Assembly: GCA_051313645.2 (NCBI GenBank)
Contig: JBNRSN020000002.1
Location: 304,544,001 to 304,608,000, forward strand
Reading direction: 5' to 3'
DNA: 64,000 nt
DNA from: Centroscyllium fabricii
Taxonomy: Eukaryota
Below the pieces are notes generated by a model. The model searched no databases, was not told where the DNA came from, and worked only from the letters and a program-made list of their open reading frames with translations. Shown piece by piece: positions 41,525 through 59,696 of the stretch (positions are counted from its first letter, which is position 1; the number at the start of each line of letters is the position of its first letter). The position numbers were made by a program, and so were the translations under genes.

Positions 41525-44500
41525 ATGATCATGGCCACTCAAAGTCCTGCATTCTTTCAGATTTCTCCCCCCTCCGAGTTTGATTTTATGCGGCCAGAAG
41601 AGTGGCCGTTGTGGATCAGCAGATTTGAACGTTTCAGACAGGCTTCGGGCCTCAATAAACAGGCACAGGAAAAACAGGTTAATACCCTATTATATTCCAT
41701 GGGAGCGGAGGCTGAAGCGATCGTCCGGTGCAGGAATATTACGGCTGATCAACTGAAAAGCTATGACACACTTAAAACGAAGTTGTCTAATCATTTCATC
41801 CCGCGGAGGAATTTGATATTTGAACACGCAAGATTCCATAGGCGCGTGCAGGAGAGAGGGGAATTGTATGACAGCTTCATCAAAGTGCTATATGAGCTCA
41901 TCGAACACTGTGAATATGGAGATATGCAGGATGAACTAATTCGTGACAGATTGGTTGTTGGACTAAAGGATCTTAAACTCTCTGGAAAATGACAGATGGA
42001 TCCAGACCTCACAGTTGACAAAGCAAAAACACAGGTTTTCCAAAGTGAAACAATAAAGAAACAGCAATTAATGCTTCAGAAAGGTAGTAATGAGGAGGAG
42101 GAGTCCATTGAAACCATAAGTGCCACCCGACAAGCAGGTCCCCAAAAACATTTTTCAAACAAATCAAGACAGACTGACTCACGTGAATATGTACAGCGGC
42201 CTCGCACTGGAACTCAAACTGGAACACATTTCCAAGCAGAAAAGCGGAGTTGCAGATGGTGTGGCCGGAGTACACACAATAGACAAATCTGTCCAGCCAA
42301 AGATGTTAGCTGCAGGAATTGCCAGAAAAAGGGGCATTTTGCTGCAGTTTGCTGATCCACACCTGCGGTTGCTGAAATATCAGAGGACAATGACAATGAG
42401 ATAGCGTTCCTGGGGTCAATTGGAAATGGGCAGGACCAGCCATGGACCATCACACTAAGCCTGTGTGGCCACATGACTGAATTCAAAATTGATACAGGGG
42501 CTGATGTCACTGTTATCCCGGAGTGCCTCAACAACGACCTAGGTCTAGAGGCTCTTCAGAGCACCTCTAAGATTCTTCAGGGGCCTGGTCAAGTCCCGTT
42601 GAATGTGAGAGGAAAATTTTCAGCTACCCTGACCCGTGGTCCACGGTCTACAAAGCAGGTTGTGTATGTGGTACGCGGTCTACGGACAGCGCTCCTCGGT
42701 CGCCCCGCCATCATTTCCTGCGTCTGGTGTCCAGGTCGGACCCACATATAGCAGAGACAGTATCTATGGCTCTCGAACGGGAGGTCAGACAACAGTTCCC
42801 CAGACTGTTTCAAAGCAGTGGGCGACTGCAAGAGGAGTATCACATTTGCCTCAAGCCGGAGGCCAAACCTTTTGCTATCTCTACATCCCGACGTGTCTCG
42901 CTCCCCCTTATGACCAAAGCTAAGGAGGAACTCACCCACATGGAGCAACTGGGGATAATTGCAAGAGTTGAGGAACCCACAGCCTGGTGCTCCGGAATGG
43001 TCGTAGTCCCAAAACCCAACGGAAAAATCAGAATCTGTGTAGACCTAACAAAACTCAATGAATGTGTCTGTAGAGAGCTGCATCTCCTACCCTGTGTAGA
43101 GCACACTCTGGGGCAGCTGAAAGATGCAAAGGTTTTTTTACAAAGCTTGATGCTCAATCTGGTTTCTGGCAAATACCCTTGACAGAGGAGTCAAAACATC
43201 TTACCACGTTCATCACGCCATTTGGACGTTACTGTTTCCACAGATTGCCCTTTGGAATATCCTCCGCCCCTGAGCATTTCCAGTGCCGCATGTCCCGCCT
43301 CCTTGAGGGACTTGATGGTGTCTTATGCCAAATGGATGATGTGTTGGTGTTTGGCGCAACCCAAGAACAGCACGATCAGCGACTGTTTGCAATTCTCAGT
43401 AGACTACAGCAAGCTGGACTTACTCTCAACTCCAAATGTGAATTTGCCAAAACACAGGTGAAATTTCTCGGCCAGGTCATCAACGGGACCGGTGTCAGAG
43501 CAGATCCTGACAAAGTCAAGGCCCTCACACACATGGTGCGTCAAGGAATGTATCTGAAATACACCGCTTCATGGGCCTGGTCAATCACTTGGGCAAATAC
43601 ATACCCCATCTAGCCGATAAAACCAAGCCACTCCGGGATTTCCTCAACAGGCAGACCTCATAGTATTGGGGACCCCAGCAGTCCCAAGCTTTCAGTGAGA
43701 TAAAGATGAGCTAACCACCCCGCCAGGCCTTGCACTGTATGACCACAATACACTCATTAAAGTGTCAGCTGACACCTCATCGTTTGGCTTGGGTGCAGTC
43801 CTTTTACAATAGAGACCTGACACCGACTGGTGCCCTGTAGGCTATGCTTCACGAGCCCTTTCAAAAACAGAGCAGCGCTATGCGCAGATTGAGAAAGAGG
43901 CCTTGGCCATTACATGGGCATGTGAGCGCTATAGAGACTTCCTAATGGGCATGACATTCCAGGTCGTAACAGATCACAAGCCCCTCCTTACACTATTGAG
44001 ATCTAAAAACCTGGACAAGTTGTCCCCCCGCATTCAGCGCTTTCGGATGCGACTCATGCACTTTCACTTCACTATATCACATGTGCCAGGGAAGAGCCTA
44101 GCAACTGCCGACGTTCTCTCCAGAGCTCCCTACCAGCCGCTGGTGGATGATTCCTCTGAGGTGCAATGCACAGAGAATTATGTACACTCAATACTCATTG
44201 CTCTGCCCATTACCGAGAAACGCCTGGCTGCACTTCGTCACGTACAGGAAATGGATGAACTATTTTGTCAGGTCTTCACATACTGCCATGAGGGCTAGCC
44301 AGATGATGCAAAACTTGACAACGCTCTTAGACCTTACGCGGCTATTTCAGGTGACCTCACTATTGCACAAGGATTGCTGCTACAAGGGTGTCGGTTGGTC
44401 ATTCCAGCATCAATGCAGAAAGACATTCTGGACAAACTGCATGATGGCCATCAAGGGATCACAAAATGCAGAGCACGAGCCAGGTGTTCTGTCTGGTGGT

Positions 44501-45477
44501 CTGGATTAAGCGGTCAACTACAACATAAAGTACAACAGTGCCCAAGCTGTGCCCAAATGAGACAACAACCACCAGAGCCATTGATTCCAGGTGACACCCC
44601 TGAGGGCCCATGGCAGAAGGTTGGGGCTGATCGATTTCATTTGGATAACTCAACTCACCTGGTAATGTTTGACTACTTCTCTAAGTTCATTGAAGTTATC
44701 AAACTTTCCTCCACCACCTCACATGCAGTCGTTGAGTGCATGAAATCCTGCTTTGCCTGCCTAGGGGTCCCACTGCTGGTCCGAACAGATAACGGCCCCC
44801 AATTTGCCTCGGTCATCTTTCGCTCATTTGCCGACAGCTGGGACTTCACCCATGTCACATCCAGCCCTCTGTATCCTCAAAGCAATGGGGCTGCCGAGCG
44901 CGCTGTCCAGACAGCCAAACATCTTTTTAAAAAGTCACCTTACCCATACCGGGCACTCCTTGCATACCGCTCCACACCTCTTTCTAGCGGGTTAAGCCCT
45001 GCTGAGTTGCTACAAGGCAGGAAACTTTGTACAACCGTGCCAACTATGCCATCACTCCTGACCCCAGGCTGGCCTGACCTCCAGAATTTTACAGACAAGG
45101 ATAAACAATCTAAACTAAGACAACAGGCCAACTTTAACAGGCGCCACAAAGCTAAGCCCTTGTGTCCACTCCTTCCAGGTGACTATGTGTGGATACAGGA
45201 CTCCCGCAAAAGAGGCATTGTGCAAGGACAGGCCAACACCCCAAGATCGTATCTGGTTGATATCCAGGGCCAGATTGTTTGTAGGAACCGCAGACACCTC
45301 GCACTTACACAGCAGCCCCCAGACGCTGATGAGCCTTCCATTCCCGATGACGACAATGGGGATGTCGGTCCTGGAACTCCCCCACCCACAGTGGATACCC
45401 CACCTCCATCGGGTTCCAGACGATACCCTGAAAGGGTCCGGAAGCCTCCTTCATACCTCCAGGACTTTGAAACATGA
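41525..45477 (+). pseudogene. gag-pol: Disrupted gag-pol of element C
   Basis: Contains Gag (WPLWISRFERF, LIRDRLVVG), two CCHC knuckles (CRWCGRSTHNRQIC, CRNCQKKGHFAAVC), protease (KIDTGAD), RT (RICVDL, LPFGISSAP, QMDD), RNase H (TDHKPL) and integrase (LHDGHQG...CPSC, TDNGPQF, NGAAER). Stops occur at 41990 and 42353, and frameshifts near 42715, 43135 and 43535. Confidence 0.95.
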
Positions 45478-46099: not shown

Positions 46100-46197
46100 T
46101 AAAAACAGAAAATGCTGGAATGCTCAGCAGGTCAGGCAGCATCTGTGGAGAGAGAAACCGAGTTAACGTTTCAGGTCAATGACCCTTCATCAGAACT
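46100..46197 (-). mobile_element. Penelope-like element terminal fragment containing a minimal hammerhead ribozyme motif
   Basis: The minus strand reads AGTT-CTGATGA-A-GGGTC-ATT-GACCT-GAAA-CGTT-AACT, followed by CTCTCCACAGATGCTGCCTGACCTGCTGAG...CCAGCATTTTCTGTTTT. Confidence 0.75.
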
Positions 46198-47499
46198 CTT
46201 GTCATATGGAGTAATCATTTGTTTGCAAACTAAATACCTAAAAAATTGTTTCAGAACATACAAGATCTGATTACAAGGGTGCTTCTTTCAGGCATAACTT
46301 TAATTGCATTGAGCAATTTAAAAAATATATATAACACTGCTATTTTCAATGCTTTGTTCATTATTTTTGCTCCTCTATTCTTTTCTTTGACTTACCTCCC
46401 CTTCCGTTATATATCACCTTTCCTGAGCTGGTGACTCTTTGGTACATTTCTTAATGCAATGGCTGCTCCAAGTACCTCACTTAAGCAACCATTAGAGTTG
46501 GACGATCGGAGAGTTAGAGCTGCCGGCCTGATTGATTGCGTGGGGCATCAGAGTAAGCCTGACACTGTCTTCACATGAGGGGAGTAGGTGGAGCAAGTGC
46601 TGTCCCAATGTTAATGTTAATGTTGGGGTACAATGCACCCCCCCAGTCTGAGCTAATTACCTCTGATCTGAAATAGCTTACTGCTGGAACTTGCCAGCTT
46701 GTCCATTTTACATTGCAGTTAAGTCAACAGATTCAAATTCACCATACTCCAGTAGGTAGTTGCCTATTCTTCACTGAGCTGCTCAAGAGTGAGGGAAGTT
46801 TGAATCTGTTGGATTTTAATTGTAAATATGAAAAACTGGGTCCCCAATAAGCAGTAACGAGTCTGCTGCAATTTATATGATAAGGGCACTTAACACTTCT
46901 TTTCTGAAGAAACAGGAAAATATTGCCAGATGTCTAAGTTTTACATTTTCATCTCCTTTTACCTTTTGTGTTAGAGTTGGCACAGCTAATGAATCCATTG
47001 TCATGAATTCTGCATTCTGATTCATACCCTGTTAGCCCATTATACACTGCACAGTAGCATTTCTACTTCTAAATAAGTCAGAGTACACAAAGGACCACAT
47101 CATGCAATAGGATAAATGTTGTGCAACATAAAGCTACAGTGCTCTAAGAACTGGTCTGTTTTTAATAAGTTGGTGTGAACATTCAACCACATTTGACTCA
47201 ACAACAGGGGTTGGGCATCAAACTGATTCTGAACCAGCTTGCTTTCTTCCTTCTTAAATGCAGATCCCACTTCTGGAGTGACACAATGGGGATTCTAGGA
47301 GGTTGTCAGACATCTGCAGGGGCTGTGTGTTTACAGTTCCCATGGAAACACTCCACTGTGACATCACAGTGGCGTGCAATCAATGGGAAAGGCCAAGTGC
47401 TCTGAGCGACAGGTAGGCAGGCAGGCTGCAAATCGTTGACAGCTAGGGGCCGGCTGTCAATGGAGCTGTCAATAGAGCTGGCAAGGTAAGATTTCTAAG

Positions 47500-47824: not shown

Positions 47825-49229
47825 ATGTACCACTCTGCAGACATTTCAATTATTATGCTGTATTCCTGTCATGGTAAGTGATGGACACATGGCTATCAAC
47901 TACATCTAAAATCACAGTAAAAAATTAAGAATACCAGTCAACTGGTAATTTCTCCATTTCCCGATTGTCTAATGGGGAATGTGATTTCTGGTAATCTAAT
48001 AAGAGGGACATCTGTCTGATTCATGGTAGTCTATTGGTAAGGAAATAGCTGACCTAATGGTAGTAAAATATCAATTTGATTGCTATTAGCGTGGCAACAG
48101 ACTGATAAGCAGCCTCATAGGATTTTCTATGACACATAAAAAGTATTATTTTGTTAAAGCACAGCACAAACATCGGAATAGCTCCCCTTTCTTCATCGCA
48201 CATCGAGAGCATGGGGTTCTATACTGTTTTGCATAAAGAAGAAGTTAACTAATTAACCCAAATGGAGTGTTGCCAGGATAAATCTGATACATAACCTGAA
48301 CTCTCAGCACATTCTGACACTTTGAATACTTCAGTACTTTAGTGACAGATCAATACATTCAAATTCCTTGAAATCTCTTTCTAAAAACTAAATTCTCAAC
48401 CTTCCCATCGGAAGCATTTCCTGAAGAGCGACAAGGAACTCCCCACAGGTCTGTAAGCAGACTGCCACAATCCAAAATGGCTTCAGAACAACAAGGGGAA
48501 CATCAGGAATGGTGTTCTTGGCCAGATAGTGCCACATAGTTTGCATTTATGTAATATTAATTGGAAATATTACATTTAAAAAGCCATATTCATCAGGTTT
48601 GAAGATATCTTTATCATTGCCTGAGAGATACTGTGAAAAATGGCCAATTATTGTGGTTGCTGTATATGTAGAATAAGACTTTATATATGGCATGTAGGTA
48701 TTTATATTGAATGGAAATAGATGCTTCTTTGTAATGTTGATGATGTAGGCAAGGATGATGGATGTTATTACATTTCAACATCGATATTGTGTCCCAGACA
48801 ATACACACTCTTCCGCTCTAACCCATGACAGCTCTTCTAGCACTTGCTAGCAAACATCTGAAGGCAAAGCTGTCTAAGCCTTCTGCTCTACTGCTGCTGT
48901 CGAACTGGTCTTTGCTCCAATTAATGTTGTTAAACTGCTATGGGCCTGCTAGACTGGACTGAGCGGATAGTCTCTACTCCCAATAAATTACAAGAATACC
49001 AGATGGACAGTAAATATTACCAAGTGTGCCGATCTCTCTCCAGAAACTAGACCATTGAATTAATTCAACAAGGGACCATATGACCCTTGAATGGCATTAT
49101 CCATCAAATATATGCCTTTGTAACCTATAAATTTGGGTTCACAAGATAAATTGATTATAGAGCATATAGGGAAATTACATTAATACCCAAATGTTATATC
49201 TACAGGGGGATTCTGTTTCATTCCGTATA

Positions 49230-49623
49230 GGGCGGCACGGTGGCATAGTGGTTAGCACTGTTGCCTTACAGCACTAGAGACCCGGGTTCAAATCCAGCCT
49301 CGGATACTATCTGTGTGGAGTTTGCACATTCTCCCTGTGTCTGCGTGGGTTTCCTCCGGGTGCTCCGGTTTCCTCCCACAGTCCAAAGATGTGCGGGTTA
49401 GGTTGATTGGCCAGGATAAAATGACCCTTAGTGTTAGGGGGATTGAATATGTGGGGTTACGGGGATAGGGTGGGATATGTGTCAGTGCAGGCTCGATAGG
49501 GATATGGGGAGAGGGTAGGAGGGGGTTTGGATGATCAGCCATGATCTCATTGAATGGCAGAGCAGGCTCGAAGGGCCAAATGGCCTACTCCAGCTCCTAT
49601 CTTCTATGTTTCTATGTTTCTAT
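49230..49623 (+). mobile_element. HE1-like V-SINE (tRNA head, V domain, CR1-derived tail)
   Basis: A box (TGGCATAGTGG), B box (GGTTCAAATCC), V domain (GTGTGGAGTTTGCACATTCTCCC...GCGTGGGTTTCCTCCGGGTGCTCCGGTTTCCTCCCACAGTCCAAAGA) and tail (GGCTCGAAGGGCCAAATGGCCTACTCC followed by TTTCTATG repeats). A second copy starts at 53774. Confidence 0.92.
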
Positions 49624-50152
49624 TCTTAATTTCTCAGTAGCTAGCTTTGGCCTAGGATAGAACAAAAAATGGACTCTAATATAATTCCTTCCCACAGCTC
49701 CTGATAACTAGATTCTTTACATAATATAAAGACAACTTTAAATCTCGACAACTTGAAAAATCTGAAGAAACTTCACAAGAAGAGTAGTCTATTTACAGCA
49801 TTGTTCAGATAATAATGGTGAGTCCTTTCTCTAGGTAGGTACATTTAGGCAGTTAAAGGTTTTAGGGACTCTTTTCTGTTTTGTGCTATACACTTTTGGA
49901 ATGTAGATAACCTTCTTTCTAATTTGATTGCTTCTTATAATTGCTCTTGTTAACTTCGCAATTTTGCAACTTTCCTGATGAATGTGCCCTGAGCTTCAAG
50001 GAATTCAGAATTTTCCCCATAAACCTCAGAACCCTCCTTTAGGGATGGAGTTCCTTTCTCAAGCATTGTTTTAAACTCCAGCTGTTCGCCTTCCTGGCTG
50101 CATGTTTATTTATATGGATCTGCTTGCCTTATGCCCTAGTTTCACTGGAGGC

Positions 50153-50422
50153 TAAGAATGCCAAGTATCCCAAGAATCGTCAAGAATCGAAAATCTTGGC
50201 GATTCTTGGGGATTCTGCAAGAAATGCGAAAAATCTTGGTGGATTCTTGGCGATTCTTGGTGAATTCTTGGCGATTCTGGACAAGGTTACGAATCTATCA
50301 CGAATTATTTTACGAATGAGGTACGAATCACTCACGAATCCACCACGAATTGCAAGAATTAATTAAGAATCCACTACGAACTCCACGAATTAGTTACGAA
50401 TTCTAAGAATCATCTAAGAATT
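50153..50422. repeat. Left subterminal repeats of the Harbinger (A[A/C]GAAT motif, both orientations)
   Basis: Many CAAGAAT, GATTCTTGG and (C/T)ACGAAT copies at roughly 11-bp spacing. Confidence 0.85.
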
Positions 50423-50512
50423 GATTTTGATAGTTGGCATTTCTGTTGATATTCCGGCATATTCCAGCATTTAAAAAAACCCTGAACCCCTGCTGAACCT
50501 GTCATTTGTACA

Positions 50513-51799
50513 ATGGGTGTTCGATGGAAAGCATGTGTGGCTCTGGCTGCAGAGTTGGAGCACTATCACGTCCTGCTGTTCTTGGAACCCCCAAGAAGAC
50601 AGAGAAGACGCAAGCACTGGTGGGTTCGACCATGGATGACACCGGCTAGAAGGCTAGAGTTTGGGCACTACCACAGACTGCTGCAGGAACTGAGGCTGGA
50701 AGATCAGAACTCCTTCGTCAACTATGTGAGAATGCCACAGCAGATGTTCGATGAGCTCCTCCAAAGGATCACCCCTTTCATCCAGAGGCAGCACACCCGG
50801 CTGAGACCACCCCTAGAAGCTGGACTGAAGCTGGCCCTCACCCTCAGACACCTGGCTACAGGAGACGGGTACCCGACCCTCCACTTCAACTTCAGATGTG
50901 GCAGGAGCACCGTGGGAGTGATCATCAAGGAGGTATGCAATGCCATCATTCAAGCACTAAAGGACGAGGTCATGCCACTGCCCCAGACCCAGGAGGACTG
51001 GAAAGCCATTGCCCACCAGTTCCAATACCGGTGGAATGTTCCTCATGCCCTGGGGGCCTTGGATGGCAAACACATAGCCCTCAAGAAACCACCCAAGTCT
51101 GGCAGTGTGTACTACAATTACAAGGGCTTCTTCTCCGTGGTTCTGTTGGGCTTGGTGGATGCAGATTATAAGTTTATCTGGATTGACACTGGTGGACAAG
51201 GTCATCAATCTGATGGACAGATATTTGGGGCCTCACAACTGAGGGAATGCATAGAAGACCAAACCATCCACTTCCCTGACGCTGACCCTCTGCCTAATGA
51301 TGACAGAGACATGCCCTACTTTATCCTGGGAGACGAAGCTTTTGGCCTCAGAACTTTCCTCATCAAACCCTACTCCAGGAGGGGTCTCAGTGATGAGATG
51401 ATGGTGGCCAACTACCGAATCTCAAGGGGCAGACGCGTGGTGGAGAATGCCTTTGGAATAATGGCCAACAGATGGAGATGCTTCCTTGGAACCCTGGAAC
51501 AACATCCAGAAATGGTGTGCACCATGGTGGAAACAGCTGTCCTGCTTCACAACCTCATGAGGATCAGGTTCCCCGCAATTGGAAACACAGAGGTGGACCA
51601 CGAGGATGACAACCACAGCATCATCCCTGGAGCCTGGAGGGACGGCATGCAGATGCATGCGGTTACACACCCCTCTGCACGTAACATAGACCACCAGATG
51701 GGCAAGATCCAGAGGGACTACCTCACAGCATACTTCAACAGTGCTGCTGGATCTGTTCCGTGGCAGGACAGAATGGCAGGACTGAGCAAGCGTGTGTGA
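50513..51799 (+). CDS. PIF/Harbinger DDE transposase (HARBI1-like family), 428 aa, uninterrupted
   Basis: Contains WWVRPW, an HTH region (LALTLRHLATGDGY), the catalytic motifs ALDGKH, LGDEAF and VVENAFG, and also YYNYKGFFS and LLHN. Confidence 0.95.
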   Translation: MGVRWKACVALAAELEHYHVLLFLEPPRRQRRRKHWWVRPWMTPARRLEFGHYHRLLQELRLEDQNSFVNYVRMPQQMFDELLQRITPFIQRQHTRLRPPLEAGLKLALTLRHLATGDGYPTLHFNFRCGRSTVGVIIKEVCNAIIQALKDEVMPLPQTQEDWKAIAHQFQYRWNVPHALGALDGKHIALKKPPKSGSVYYNYKGFFSVVLLGLVDADYKFIWIDTGGQGHQSDGQIFGASQLRECIEDQTIHFPDADPLPNDDRDMPYFILGDEAFGLRTFLIKPYSRRGLSDEMMVANYRISRGRRVVENAFGIMANRWRCFLGTLEQHPEMVCTMVETAVLLHNLMRIRFPAIGNTEVDHEDDNHSIIPGAWRDGMQMHAVTHPSARNIDHQMGKIQRDYLTAYFNSAAGSVPWQDRMAGLSKRV

Positions 51800-51958
51800 A
51801 TTTCAGTGATTTGACATTACCAGTGATGTTGTTTAATTTGATGATAAATGGATAAAAATGGTTAATAGACTGAGGTGTTAAACTATGCTAATTTGCCTAT
51901 GTATAAGTTCAGATTTCTCCTCTCCCCCATGTGTGATGTTTGACTTCAGTCTGTCTGT

Positions 51959-51998
51959 GTTACCTGACGAAGGGGCAGAAGCTCCGAAAGCTTGTGAT
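51959..51998 (+). ncRNA. Putative minimal type I hammerhead ribozyme (Penelope-type) inside the Harbinger
   Basis: GTTAC-CTGACGA-A-GGGGC-AGAA-GCTCC-GAAA-GCTT-GTGAT. It has the conserved CUGANGA and GAAA boxes, a 5-bp stem II, a palindromic AAGCTT stem III and a stem I (GUUAC/GUGAU). Confidence 0.72.
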
Positions 51999-52077
51999 TT
52001 TAAATAAAACCGTTGGACTAAGAAACTGGTGTTGTGTGACTTCTTTGATAAATTGAGACAAATTGCGCTAAATCTCT

Positions 52078-52515
52078 GATTCGTGACGATTCGTAGTGCA
52101 TTCGTAGTGCATTCGTAGTACATTCGTGGACAATCGTGGTGCATTCGTGGTGCATTCGTGGTGCATTCCTGATTTTGAAAAAATCAAGAATGCCCAAGAA
52201 TAGTCAAGAATGCACCACGAATTCACTACGAATCAGTTACGAACGGTAAGAAAGGGTCACGAACGGTAAGAATGGGTCACGAATTGTTTACGAATCTATC
52301 ACGAATTGGAAAATCGGGAACCCTCCTACGAAATTTTTTGACAAACAAAAACTTTCTTTAAAACTAAAAGAACTCCCGCGAACTACCGCGAACTCTACGA
52401 TTCCGCTACGAATCCACTACGAATCCACTACGAATCTACTACGAATCCACTACGAATTGCAAGAATGACCCACGAATCGGCCAAATTTCACAATCGGCAC
52501 GATTCGGGAATTCGT
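52078..52515. repeat. Right subterminal repeats of the Harbinger
   Basis: 11-bp tandems GCATTCGTRGT (about 52098-52168) and CCACTACGAAT (about 52414-52457), plus a short duplication of CGAACGGTAAGAA.GGGTCA. Confidence 0.85.
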
Positions 52516-52733
52516 AGCCTCCAGTGAAACTAGGGCATTAGGGGTATACCTTCAGTGGTCTGCTTTCATGTGGAGTTTCACTAACATGAGCAGATCGGAG
52601 AATTGGGTGCAGAGGTCAGCACGCCTGATTCCCGGTGCTCCTCATTTTTTGAGCCTACAAAAAAAAGTAAGTTCAAAGAAAGTTCCAGTGATAGGCCACA
52701 TGCCAACTGACTCAAAAGTTGGTATTAACATTA

Positions 52734-53684
52734 TGGGGGTAATTTTGACTTACATTTGACTTAATTTTGAAGTCAATGGGTGAAAAATTCATCAGCGCAC
52801 AAATTGGGCGCTAAATTTGGTGCTGTGCAAAAATTTAGCGACGCCGTTAAATTAGCGGCGACAGTTACGAAATTGCCGTTAGCGGCGGCCTTGAAGATTT
52901 CGGCGCAAATTCCCGCCTTGCACGAGAGTCAGATGGCTAATATCCCGGCGTTAATGGCCGTTCCCGGGCGCAACGCTCCCTGACTAGTTGCTTGCTTCCC
53001 CTTCGTCTCTGCAGCCGATGAGGCATTAAAGGGGGAGCAGCAGCTGTTCTCCGTGCTGTCTGAGCAGTTGCATCTTGGAGAGAGCGGGCAGGGGGTCCGG
53101 ATCTCTGATCATTTGGGCCTCGGAGAGAGCAGGGAGGGGGGCCGGATCTCTGATCATTTGCACCTTGGTAGGTCGCCGCGACCCACCAAGACGCAAATGA
53201 TCAGAGAGCGGCCCCCCCTCCCCGCTTTCTCATCAATTGGCCGCTCAGGCTGGCTCCCCCCATCAGCTGGCCGCACTCGGGCCGAAGAGGGAGGGTGGCC
53301 CTTTTAGCAGCACTGAAGCGGCCACTCAAAGCCGCTGCAGCACTTGCAAAAGCTGTCGCTAATAGCGCGGGTGGCGCTGCAAAGGCGCTAAGGCCAATAA
53401 CGGGCGCAGCCCGCCGGCGGCTGTTGCACACGCGTTGCCATGACGACTGTTGATCGTCAGGTGGCGCAGCGCTAGCGTTTAGCGCCAGCGCTAACCACCA
53501 TGCCAATTTATCGCCCTGCGCTAATTTGGGCGCTATGTCGGCGCTGCCCCATTCACGCCAATTTTTGGCGCTAAAGACCCGGTCGCGCCAATTTTTCGGC
53601 CAATGAAAATCGGGAGATGTAAAACAGGCTGCCGATTTCCTGTCACCCACTTTACATCATTGCACAACATTAAACTTACCCCCA
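52734..53684. mobile_element. MITE-like non-autonomous DNA element with an internal long hairpin
   Basis: Inverted ends (TGGGGGTAATTTT / AAACTTACCCCCA) flanked by TA on both sides, with a CpG-rich non-coding interior. Confidence 0.7.
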
Positions 53685-53773
53685 TAGTGGTAATCCTGCA
53701 GCCCAAATGGTCCCACTGAAAATGGTGGTGGGATAACAAGAGTTGAAATAAAATTCCAAAGGTGTGGACCAAA

Positions 53774-54178
53774 GGGCGGCATGGTGGCACAGTGGTTAGC
53801 ACTGTTGCCTCACAGCTCTGGAGACCCGGGTTCAAATCCAGCCTCGGGTGACTATCTGTGTGGAGTTTGCACATTCTCCCCATGTCTGCGTGGGTTTCCT
53901 CCGGGTGCTCCGGTTTCCTCCCACAGTCCAAAGATGTGCGCGTTAGGTTGATTGGCCATGATAAATTGACCCTTAGTGTTAGGGGGGATTAAATATGTGG
54001 GGTTACGGGGATAGGGTGGGATATGTGTTGGTGCAGGCTTGATAGGGATGTGGGGGGAGGGCAGGGGCGGGGTGCTGGGTTTGGATGATCAGCCATGATC
54101 TCATTGAATGGCGGAGCAGGCTCGAAGGGCCGAATGGCCTACTCCTGCTCCTAGTTTCTATGTTTCTATGTTTCTATG
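53774..54178 (+). mobile_element. HE1-like V-SINE, second copy
   Basis: Colinear with and highly similar to 49230-49623; ends in three TTTCTATG repeats. Confidence 0.92.
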
Positions 54179-54274
54179 ACTCACAAAAGCAGCCCTACTA
54201 GGCTGTATGTGTTTCTTCATTGGCAAAATATTTACAGGACAAAGAAAGTTTGGGGACTTCCTTTTGTTTAAAGT

Positions 54275-56435
54275 ATTTCCCACTGTCTGATATTGTTAAC
54301 GGTTTTCTCTCCTCAGGTACTGTCCCCCTCTCCTTCAAATCCGCCGTCATCACCCCATTCCTCAAAAAAACAACACTTGGCCCCTCCGTCCTTGCAAACT
54401 ACTGCCCATCTCTAACCTACCTTTCCTCTAAAAAGTCCTTGAACTTGTTGTCACATTCCAAATCTGTGATCATCTTTCCCGGGACGGCACGTTTGAATCG
54501 CTCCAATCAGGTCTCCGCCCTTGCCACAGAACCAAAACGGCTCTTATCAAAGTCGCAAATGACATCCTTTGTGACTGTGACAAAGGTAAACTATCCCTCC
54601 TCGTCCTTCTTGAATTATCTGCAGCCTTTGACACGGTTGACCGAATCATCCTCCCCCAACACCACTCCACTGTCGTCCAGCTGGGCTGCACTCGCCTGAT
54701 TCCATTCTTATCTATCTAATCGTAGCCAGAGAATTACCTGCAATGGCTTCTCTTCCTGATCCCACATCTTTACCTCTGGTGTCCTTGGCCCCCTCCTATT
54801 TTTCATCTACATGCTGCCCCTTGGCGACATCATCCGAAAACACAGGCAGAATTTTTACCTTGGAGTCGGATGCATGCAGGCTGCGTAGCGGGTCGGTAAT
54901 GCGATATTTTGCTCAGCACATTCCTCAGGGTGACTTTAATTTAATGGCCTATTCTGAGGACCAAAGTGAGACAGTATAAGCGGCACCCATGCTGATGTAG
55001 GAGATGTCAGGTAAAGCGGAGATCAGAGGGCCAATCCTTCAATGTTCTGATACCGAGTAACAATGTGGTGAGAGTGGTTCCTGAGGTTTCACAAATAACC
55101 TGTAAACTGCTGACACCTAAATCTGTGCCCAAATTCTAGTCAGCAAGAGCCTTTCCATGAGGCAAGTAATCAGGTGTAATGTTGGTCTATTTATGTGCTT
55201 GTCCCAGCTCTCAATGAATGGACTCGCCAATGGACACTGAGCTTCTGCCTTCCATTCACAGGTGAGGTACCTGAGCTATGTGAATCTGTGTTCCTGCAGT
55301 AAAAGTCAAAAGTTGTTGTTAAAAACCCTCTTAAGGGTCTCTCAACAAGTAGTTAATAACTTCAATGAGGTCGCCCGCCTCTACCGATCGGCTCCATATC
55401 GCTCCTTCAAAGCCGCCTGAGTTAAATGCGTGAGGCGACAGGATGACGGCAGGTTCCCGACGAGCTGGCAATTTCTGGGATTTTACTGCCGACCTGCCCC
55501 CAAACTTGTAGGCATGGCAACGATAAAACTCCGGCCACAGTGTCAGTTTCCACTACCGGGATGCAGCTCTACCTCACCACCAACTCTCTCAACCTCTCCA
55601 CTGTCTCTAAATTGTCAGACTGCTTGTCCGACATCCAGTACTGGATGACCAGAAATTTCCTCCAGCTAAATAATGTGAAGACTGAAGCCATTGTCGGTTC
55701 CTAACCACCAACTCCATTCCTCTCCTGGCAACTCTGAGGCTGAACCAGACTGATCGCAACCTTGATGGCATATTTGACACTGAATTGAGCTTCCAACCAC
55801 ATATCCATGCCATCACTAAGCCCACCTATTTCCACCTCTGTACCATCATCCATCTCCACCCCTGCCTTAGCTCATCTGCCTCATTCATGCCTTTGTTACC
55901 TCTAGACTGGACTATTCCAATGCTCTCCACACATTCCACCCTACGAAAACTCGAGGTTATCCAAAACTCGGCTGCCCGTGTCCTAACTTGCACCAAGTCC
56001 CGTTCACCCATCACCCCTGTGCTCGCTGATCTACATTGGCTCCCGCTTAAGCAACATCAGGATTTTAAAATTCTGATCCTTGTTTTCAAATCCCTTCATG
56101 GCCTTGCTCCTCCCTATCTCTGTAATCTCCTCTAGCCCCATAGCCCCCTGAGATATCTGCACTCCTCTATGTCTTGATTTTGAGCATCCCCGATTTTAAT
56201 CACTCCAGCATTGGTGGCCGTGCCTTCAGCTGCCAAGGTCTTATGATTTGGAATTCCCTCCATAAACCTTTCTACCTTTCTTTCCTCCTTTAAGACACTC
56301 CTTAAAAACTACCTCTTCTGCTCTAATATCTTCTATGTGACTTGGTGTCAAATTTTGTTTTATAACACTCCTGTGAATCGCCTTGGAATGCTTAACTATG
56401 TTAAAGGTGCTATATAAATGCAAATTGTTGTTGTT
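54275..56435 (+). mobile_element. 5'-truncated, decayed L2 LINE, split by a MITE insertion
   Basis: RT remnants include SDIVNGFLSSGTVPLSFKSAVITPFLKK, TKTALIKVANDILCDCDKGKLSLLVLLELSAAFDTVD and IQNSAARVLT...ITPVLADLHWLP. The 3' end reads AAAGGTGCTATATAAATGCAAA followed by TTG repeats. Confidence 0.9.
54845..55536. mobile_element. Non-autonomous DNA element (Harbinger-like MITE) inserted in the L2
   Basis: Interrupts the L2 codons for IIRKH|SVSFH, with a 3-bp duplication (ACA at 54842-54844 and 55537-55539) and imperfect TIRs (GGCAGAATTTTTA / TAAAACTCCGGCC). Confidence 0.75.
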
Positions 56436-57629: not shown

Positions 57630-59123
57630 ATGGAGAGCGGCGCTGTGAAACCCGAAAAGCTGGACATTAGTCCACAGGACCCAGCCGCCACCAACACCTT
57701 CGAACACTGGTTCGGTCTCCTGGAGGCCTACATGGATGTCGCCAAGGCTACAACCGAAGGGAACAAGCTACAGGTTCTCCGATCCAGGATCTCCAGCCGG
57801 GTATTCTCCTTCATCCGTTACACCAAAACGTACCCCGATGCGGTGGCTAAACTGAAGAAATGCTACGAGCGCCCGGTCCACTCAGTCTACGCCAGACATG
57901 TGCTCGCGACCAGACTACAACTACCGAGTGAGTCAAACGAGCAGTTCGAGCAGGCGCTCCAAGTCCTTGTCCGGGTCTGTGGTTGCCAACCACGGATGGC
58001 AGAAGAGGAGGCGAACCTCCTCGTCCGGGACGCCTATGTAACGGGACTCAGGTCCGCAGAGGCCCGCCAGCGGCTGCTGGAAAAAGACACTCTAACTCTG
58101 GAGGACGCGATCTCTATCGCCAACGCCGTTGAGGGCGCACGCTGCAAGCTGCAGGCGTACGGCGGCCCAAACCCACAGGCCTACGACGCGTGGGCAGTCC
58201 CACAACGGGTCGAGACCCCCACAATGGCAGCGGCAGCTGCGAAGACGCCGGCGGAGAAGAAATGCTACTTCTGCGGCCAGGGACTACACCCACGGGTGAG
58301 ATGCCCAGCGAAGACCGCGACCTGCGAGAGGTGCTCAAAGAAAGGATACTACGCCAAGGGCTGCAGATCAGCCCCGGCGTCCAGCTCCAGGTACAACAGC
58401 GCGGCCTGTGAAAGTTCCAACACCGGCCCTTGGCCTCAGGTAAGCTGCAACTGCAGCGCGACCCAGCGACGGTCCGGGGGTAGAGTACAAGCGCCCCCAT
58501 CTCCCACCCTGAGGCGGCAGAGGCCGGCTGCACCCACGGCACGCCAAACTCAGCCACGGCCGGCCATGCGCAACCCCCCAACGCCGGCATCCCGCCCAGC
58601 GCGGCTCGCTGCGTGCGAATCACGGGCACCGCCAACCCAGCCACCGCAGCCCTCTGTGTGCGAACCACGGGCACCGCCACTGCGTCTACAGTGGCCCGCC
58701 ACATGCGAACCATGGGCGCCGCCATCTTGTCTGCAGCGGCACGCCATGTGCGACCCCCCGGCGCCGCCATCTTGTCTTCAGCGACCAGCCATGTGCGACT
58801 CTCCGGCGCCGCCATTTTGTCCCCAGAGGCCGGCCATGTGCGAACCACGGGCGCCGCCATCTTGTGTACGGCCCCGAACAGCGGAGTGCTCCCACACACA
58901 CACACACAATTCGGCCTCAGCCATCCCGAAAGTCAATCAGGCTAGGCTGCACACCCTATCAAATTCCATGATGGGGATTAAAGTCAACGGCCACGCCACT
59001 AACTGCCTGTTCGATGCCGTAAGCAAAGAGAGCTTCATTCACCCCGATACAGCGCAGCGCTACGGACTGCAGATCCGGCCCACGCGCTACCAGGTCTCCC
59101 TTGCTTCACAGTCCCACACCGCG
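57630..59123 (+). pseudogene. gag: gag plus start of protease of element D, interrupted by element E
   Basis: Contains Gag (YARHVLATRLQ...VRDAYVTGLRS), zinc knuckles (CYFCGQGLHPRVRC and a degenerate CERCSKKGYYAKGC) and a degenerate protease site (VNGHATNCLFDAVSKESFIHP). The last residues of the listed ORF read into the inserted LTR. Confidence 0.9.
58563..58870 (+). repeat. In-frame 45-bp (15-aa) tandem repeat between the zinc knuckles and the protease
   Basis: Six to seven units of C(E/D)xxAPPxxxQxPAM, with GCCGCCAT(C/T)TTG at 58718, 58763, 58808 and 58853. Confidence 0.88.
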
Positions 59124-59696
59124 TGTCATGGGTGGACTGTCACTTTAAATCTCTAGGCTGCAGTTCATTATTGGATTATTACCTATTGTCATGTGTCACA
59201 TCTGATTGGTCTAAATTCTAGCATACTGGTTACTGGAGCTAAATATAAACCACCTGTTAGCCCTATGACTTTGTCGGAGTGTTATTTCTTATGTCGCTTG
59301 TTGAAGAGTTCTGTATTTCCTGTATCCTGTTATTCTGGTATTATATATTTGTGTTCGATTCCAATCGTTTTGGATTCCTGGTTCCTGTCGTGTTGGATTA
59401 CCTGTTACGCTGAACAAGGAGTGTCCTTTCCTGGACTGTGGATTATTGGGAGTACTTCTGCACCAGACTTTTGGGCCTTGCTTCTTCAACCACCAAGATT
59501 TGGGGTTTGGATATTTGAACTCCTGCTTACCGGCTCTCGGTATATTGGACTATTGCTTTCTTCGTTTTGCTATGTGTATTATGCTCTATGTGTTTTGATA
59601 TCTATATACACTGTTGTTATAATTAGGAATAAAGCACCTATTTACTATAGACTGTCTCCGGTGTTTTGCAATTGGGTTCAAAACCGAACCCTTACA
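59124..59696 (+). repeat. 5' LTR of element E
   Basis: TGTCA...TTACA ends, TATAAA at 59244, AATAAA at 59628, and an abrupt junction inside the element D protease. Confidence 0.88.

Follow-up and report, generated by a model that had tools for sequence, protein, structure and literature searches.

A Penelope-derived minimal hammerhead motif carried, probably as a neutral passenger, by a Harbinger DNA transposon family of Centroscyllium fabricii

Minimal type-I hammerhead motifs of metazoan Penelope-like elements are set out by Cervera and de la Pena (2014, PMC4209133), who describe a helix I that is short, a single unpaired base separating positions 9 and 10.1, a G10.1–C11.1 pair and a palindromic 15.2–16.2 segment without loop 3. 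That paper places them in the pLTRs (Penelope terminal repeats), with solitary copies numbering in the thousands in a genome. As single units, such minimal hammerheads are reported there to show no detectable cleavage in vitro, and dimers to show low cleavage; the question of whether metazoan minimal hammerheads cleave in vivo is left open.

Two further systems are close. Animal non-LTR retrozymes (PMC7229834; bioRxiv 10.64898/2026.07.22.740005), like the cassette described here, are non-autonomous hammerhead-bearing sequences related to Penelope pLTRs. Unlike them, the present cassette is not a tandem array of 150–450 nt units, and a DNA transposase rather than an RNA intermediate has spread it. 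Mammalian Clec2 hammerheads (PMC2950038) also lie in a 3′ UTR, and cleavage at such a place would make the mRNA less stable. Those motifs are single ribozymes conserved across mammals, whereas the present motif has no helix III and its core is broken in two of three long lineages, a comparison to which three lineages lend little power. A full-text literature search, with most subscription papers outside its reach, yielded no account of a DNA transposon family with a fixed hammerhead.

The window, by which the whole analysed stretch of 64,000 nucleotides is meant, contains such an element, with the following parts:

50129..50131, no strand: left target-site duplication TTA of the Harbinger, read from the sequence
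50132..52537, + strand: Harbinger DNA transposon, 2,406 bp, delimited by its terminal inverted repeats (TIRs)
50132..50154, + strand: left TIR, 23 bp, from an inverted-repeat match
50513..51799, + strand: transposase ORF, 428 aa (PF13359, DDE_Tnp_4, E 3.6e-27; HARBI1/ALP1-like relatives)
52064..52065, + strand: deletion joint, where the native TTTATT..AATAAA region and the second ORF are gone from the window copy
52515..52537, + strand: right TIR, 23 bp, from an inverted-repeat match
52538..52540, no strand: right target-site duplication TTA of the Harbinger, read from the sequence

The element resembles other PIF/Harbinger transposons in its DDE_Tnp_4 transposase, its short TIRs and the TWA duplications of the window family. 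A convergent second ORF, putatively MADF/Myb-like, would be a further likeness; it is seen in full-length copies and deleted in the window. The element differs from them in a retro-inserted cassette of 180–220 nt that follows the transposase stop and precedes the native poly(A)-like region. Full-length copies (L081–L086) measure 4.2–4.9 kb, hold the cassette between the stop and the native TTTATT..AATAAA region, and carry the second ORF in six of six cases, its MADF match (E 5e-4, 20.7 bits) lying below the Pfam cut-off of 22. The window Harbinger is a transposase-only deletion derivative of a 4.2-kb element. TTA or TAA follows the right TIR at 19 of 20 loci examined.

Several other features of the family were recorded. 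The right TIR lies less than 1 kb from the transposase stop, with the second ORF lost, in 21 of 30 sampled window-family copies (L087–L116). Subfamily A (L177–L183, about 3 kb) has lost the transposase ORF and is complementary to these derivatives; the two kinds might complement each other in trans. TIR letters vary by subfamily, with CTAG in the window family (50132–50154) and CCGC or CCGG/CCAG in its sisters (L139–L190). The changes affect both ends together, on a branch rich in transposase amino-acid changes (0.11 per site; pN/pS about 0.45). Subterminal arrays of 10–11-bp ACGAAT-type repeats in both orientations (window 50160–50420 and 52080–52510), whose copy number differs among elements, are likely binding sites for the second protein. 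The nearest named transposases to the window ORF come from marine invertebrates (abalone 71%, Lingula 67%), and no shark is among the named transposase matches in the 120 listed; horizontal transfer may account for these invertebrate-like relatives. Near-identical pieces also occur in sequencing runs labelled as several different organisms.

Behind the transposase stop lies the hammerhead:

51959..51998, + strand: minimal type-I hammerhead (stem I, CUGACGA, extra A, stem II, GAAA, AAGCUU), predicted cut at 51993/51994

CTGACGA (51964–51970), 165 nt past the stop, is followed by the extra A (51971), a 5-bp stem II (GGGGC/GCTCC, 51972–51976/51981–51985), GAAA (51986–51989) and the palindrome AAGCTT (51988–51993). 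Stem I (51959–51963/51994–51998) has 5 bp, two of them G–U, and the predicted cut after U51993 falls 10 nt 5′ of an AATAAA. The preliminary description had placed the core, GAAA and AATAAA at these positions inside the TIRs, with the same stem II and palindrome, and all of this holds. Its link of the motif to Penelope also stands. The architecture agrees feature by feature with the type-I motifs presented in PMC4209133. The core reads CUGANGA plus GAAA..UH, helix I has 4–5 bp, an extra base follows A9, helix II is closed by G10.1–C11.1, and a palindromic remnant of helix III is present. Compared with those published motifs, the present one has a helix II of 5 bp, is fixed as a single motif within a DNA transposon, and has multiplied through cut-and-paste.

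A strict minimal-hammerhead descriptor recognised two motifs in the window, and all 100 first-order Markov resamples gave zero; a loose pattern by itself was not significant (four seen against 2.28 expected). The 33-letter motif pattern has at least 55,939 matches in the 7.2-Gb genome, against none for a control pattern, and together with the resamples this rules out a chance motif. An Rfam scan of 48000–56000 gave no hammerhead family among its 28 matches at E<=10, and the minimum-free-energy fold of 111 nt around the motif is not a hammerhead (z 0.72).

Elsewhere in the window, a second minimal hammerhead of another family lies on the − strand at 46160–46198, in a short repeat-like stretch, with a 7-bp stem II that includes the A after the core and a palindromic AACGTT. 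Two tRNA-like SINE copies with TTCTATG-repeat ends (49229–49623 and 53773–54177) are 90–96% alike. LTR-retrotransposon-like ORFs occupy 43945–45477 and 57630–59156, one integrase-like, the other gag-protease-like with a 45-nt internal tandem repeat. A 54-bp GC-rich inverted repeat (53123–53231), probably part of a non-autonomous repeat, is the source of weak Rfam miRNA-family matches.

The hammerhead belongs to a larger piece of foreign sequence:

51867..52044, + strand: Penelope-like 3′ end (part of a pLTR), 5′-truncated, without the roughly 38-nt tail and with a 23-nt internal deletion, identified by BLAST to free copies

Homology between the window and free Penelope copies begins at element position 1735. 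Among the first 30 matches to the motif, 5 were Harbinger-borne and 25 free, and several free copies stand behind an ORF with a reverse transcriptase (RT) domain (RVT_1, E 1.3e-8). The closest proteins to this ORF come from sharks (82–89% identity). Several of its relatives combine an RT with PF01541, which we take to be GIY-YIG. Pfam returned no GIY-YIG match on the ORF itself; its C-terminal part holds a YLI..WYIG motif, with R, H, E and N downstream, which we presume to be GIY-YIG (endonuclease-like). These comparisons point to an element with RT and GIY-YIG, and to its terminal repeat, as the source of the cassette hammerhead. The order of hammerhead and then AATAAA is Penelope's own layout, being present in free copies.

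Penelope tails of 30–40 bp, often at one end only, are mentioned in PMC8557442. Here, 14 of the 25 free copies continue into a tail of roughly 38 nt and 11 do not; the cassette in Harbinger belongs with the tailless copies. The cassette of Harbinger subfamily B is 94.4% identical to a free copy (L026) over 198 nt. A genome search for a free Penelope subfamily with the window's own variant letters gave no matches, so those changes arose inside Harbinger. Four free Penelope ends (L024, L033, L037 and L039) carry, just upstream of the hammerhead, a partial copy in inverted orientation.

The preliminary description took presence in most Harbinger copies as the sign that the cassette travels with the element, and the genomic copies bear this out. 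Of 150 identical transposase matches, 30 loci were sampled, and every one has the motif, 154–163 nt after the stop. The motif is also present in all 30 loci picked by position among 1,921 exact matches to the stop region, of which 28 have the exact 33-mer, one has G8A and one a loop-position and a stem change. An insertion private to the window copy is thereby ruled out. A 401-nt region was full-length in 40 of 40 scored matches, a sample biased by having been picked by similarity. The copies sit in different flanks with TWA duplications, and each of the 30 elements counted has a single hammerhead. A pattern covering all core forms has 4,700 genome matches, corresponding to about 4,700 cassettes; all eight of those fetched were Harbinger-borne. 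By hand count, 71 of the first 100 have an intact core (68 of the window type, 3 of a sister type) and 29 a broken one. One locus (L192, G000:C224:141385461–141390276) holds two 2.4-kb elements in head-to-tail order with a single TAA between them, which places two hammerheads 2,409 nt apart on the same strand.

The insertion event can be read at the margins of the cassette:

51830..51842, + strand: 5′ copy of the 13-bp Penelope target-site duplication, degraded (9/13), from alignment with empty and perfect-duplication subfamilies
51843..51866, + strand: junction filler of 24 nt, without Penelope homology, repeating target letters
52045..52057, + strand: 3′ copy of the 13-bp Penelope target-site duplication, degraded (12/13)

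No clear duplication had been noticed in the preliminary description, because both window copies are degraded; a 13-bp duplication does exist and is plain in sister subfamilies. The filler may consist of short re-copies of the target site. An 8-bp duplication considered at 51849–51856 was rejected, as an empty-site pattern built on it gave no matches. The sister subfamilies, about 92–94% identical in DNA, were found by a genome search with an 85%-identical outside protein (P0001). One of them is empty: it lacks the cassette and has the 13-bp site in one copy (18 exact junctions, 19 allowing one mismatch), its transposase frames are open, and TIRs and different flanks were found in three of three elements checked. 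Subfamily A has perfect 13-bp duplications on both sides of the cassette in seven of seven copies, and its 3′ flank agrees with the empty allele.

In a rooted protein tree with invertebrate and metagenomic relatives as outgroup, all 21 cassette-bearing rows form one clade (100/97), with the six empty rows outside it, in an open fork with P0124. The subfamily A copies are absent from this tree for lack of a transposase; L145, with another insertion in its UTR, was left out, and L149, which ends after the hexamer, was used in the trees only. The core alignment does not include L151, for which a neighbouring free Penelope copy had been taken. Taken together, the empty and filled alleles, the duplication and the tree indicate that the cassette was gained once; that the empty form lost it through recombination of the two duplications is the less probable account, although the fork of the empty rows is open. 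The simpler alternative offered in the preliminary description, a one-off Penelope insertion, was right too; the target of this single insertion was a master element. Fixation in the copies of a master element does not show function. Two distant metagenome relatives (46% and 59%) have no hammerhead-like pattern after the ORF, one sequence (L118) ending early, and are too distant to inform.

The core has had different fates in different lineages. It is intact in subfamilies A and B, the window lineage and intermediates. In lineage C, all seven aligned copies show C3A, A6U and a mismatch in stem II, and lineage D/E/F has G8U, with two more inserted A in subfamily F. G8U accounts for 1,428 exact genome matches, against the 4,700 cassette matches, and subfamily F, the youngest with it, has terminal branches of about 0.1–0.2%, making it as young as the window's subfamily. 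Hammerhead G8 supplies the general acid, according to PMC6155905, and pairs with C3, according to PMC4209133; loss of activity is therefore predicted for the broken cores. About 3 of about 20 lineage-shared changes, tallied by eye, fall in the 11 core positions of about 200, against 1.1 expected (P 0.09). For two or more of three lineages being hit in the core P is 0.23, and for the window lineage sparing core and stems 0.17. From these counts, the core changes appear to agree with neutral expectation, with neither constraint nor a clear drive to break the core, although three lineages give the tests little power.

The cassette is probably a neutral passenger, namely one 5′-truncated Penelope end that landed in the Harbinger 3′ UTR and has been copied along, with a single ribozyme that would cleave little or not at all. 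A retro-insertion into an active master element, by a presumed priming mechanism, came first, as the empty and filled alleles and the duplication show. Cut-and-paste then spread it, as is shown by the TIRs, TWA duplications and different flanks. Having no loop 3, the motif by itself cannot form helix III; given this structure and the literature, cleavage would require a partner motif, and one transposase mRNA would not provide it. The core drifts and was broken twice by observed mutations, with a predicted loss of activity, while amplification went on. Where the native signal has been deleted, as in the window copy, the imported AATAAA would likely form the 3′ ends.

Several points count against the passenger reading. 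The window lineage, the largest, has kept core and stems intact through about 9 changes and 11% synonymous transposase divergence; cassette-bearing copies outnumber empty ones by about 4,700 to 19; and the title of a paper by Lunse, Weinberg and Breaker, known here from its citation in PMC6765202, states that such variants cleave as dimers.

The cassette's likelier effect lies in its AATAAA, with a GU-rich element behind it, and not in the ribozyme:

52003..52008, + strand: AATAAA of Penelope origin; from the stop to the right TIR of the window copy, this strand has no other AATAAA/ATTAAA
52027..52038, + strand: GU-rich stretch, 19–30 nt past AATAAA, candidate downstream poly(A) element

The role of the GU-rich stretch is presumed from general knowledge of poly(A) signals. 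The imported hexamer likely serves as the poly(A) signal where the native one is deleted. It is less probable, though it fares best among the alternatives, that the cassette was kept for this signal, as a better or independent 3′ end that helped its clade to overtake the empty form and allowed derivatives to dispense with the native signal; this is considered unlikely. AATAAA is kept in every aligned cassette subfamily (A, B, C, D, E, F and the window lineage), broken cores included. The three lineage C copies inspected have a deletion that removes the nearest native + strand hexamer, which is AATACA in the empty form and in subfamily B; the excess of filled over empty copies would also fit. 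Against it, a single gain event is indistinguishable from chance, and the survival of six bases through what is estimated as a few dozen changes over 200 nt is unremarkable. Moreover, a native AATAAA follows 94 nt later in full-length members of the window family, and the empty form too possesses one at a more downstream position.

In the model of the preliminary description, the hammerhead would cut the transposase mRNA off its poly(A) signal when RNAs pair, limiting transposase as copies rise. The pairing partners would be Harbinger with Harbinger transcripts, tandem copies, or Harbinger with Penelope RNA. The core residues, both stems and the palindrome are all intact in the biggest lineage, and the predicted cut site just ahead of AATAAA is suitably placed. 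The tandem locus would supply two motifs on one RNA, and a drawn heterodimer of Harbinger and free Penelope motifs has a similar energy. A precedent is given in PMC2950038, where the Clec2d 3′ UTR hammerhead lowered reporter output by 80%. Against these points, the empty lineage and the broken-core lineages also transposed recently, there is no sign of core constraint in tests of little power, and single motifs of this class are the ones for which PMC4209133 reports no detectable cleavage in vitro. Any benefit would fall in trans, to the host or family more than to the carrier copy.

Folding estimates also disfavour a dimer. The drawn double hammerhead reaches −18.3 kcal/mol against −22.4 for two monomer ensembles (a penalty of +4.1), its contacts being only a 4-bp helix III and two 5-bp stems, and stem I has a pairing probability in context of 0.006–0.36. 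Pairs of free Penelope motifs pay a similar penalty (+3.5 kcal/mol), although the motif is conserved there; the penalty is therefore a weak argument and not proof of inactivity, the more so because the model omits core and Mg2+ contacts. Concentration-dependent self-limitation of the transposase by the ribozyme is thus unsupported, and the model as a whole is judged quite improbable. The same low standing is given to an active dimer-gated switch whose second copy comes from another Harbinger transcript, a tandem element or a Penelope motif.

That the ribozyme is slightly active and costly, with lineages selected to break the core, is the least probable reading of all: two independent broken-core lineages and the concentration of changes in the core would suit it, but that concentration is not significant, the second hit in lineage C would be neutral after the first, and the most numerous lineage is intact.

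On the passenger reading, the mechanism is ordinary, a nested insertion carried by its host element, and the record of it is unusually complete. Several thousand hammerhead motifs (about 4,700 cassettes, roughly 70% of them with an intact core, compared with the genome-wide total of motif matches) can spread without an RNA intermediate, so that neither copy number nor fixation in a transposable element family is evidence of ribozyme function. If the dimer-gated switch were nevertheless true, retrotransposon RNA would set the output of a DNA transposon, and the lineages with G8U and with C3A/A6U would have escaped this control by mutation. The young families that coexist in this one genome comprise an empty allele, a recent insertion whose duplications are still perfect, lineages with an intact core and two with a broken one. 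They provide a natural set of matched alleles with which possible in vivo cleavage by metazoan minimal hammerheads can be studied.
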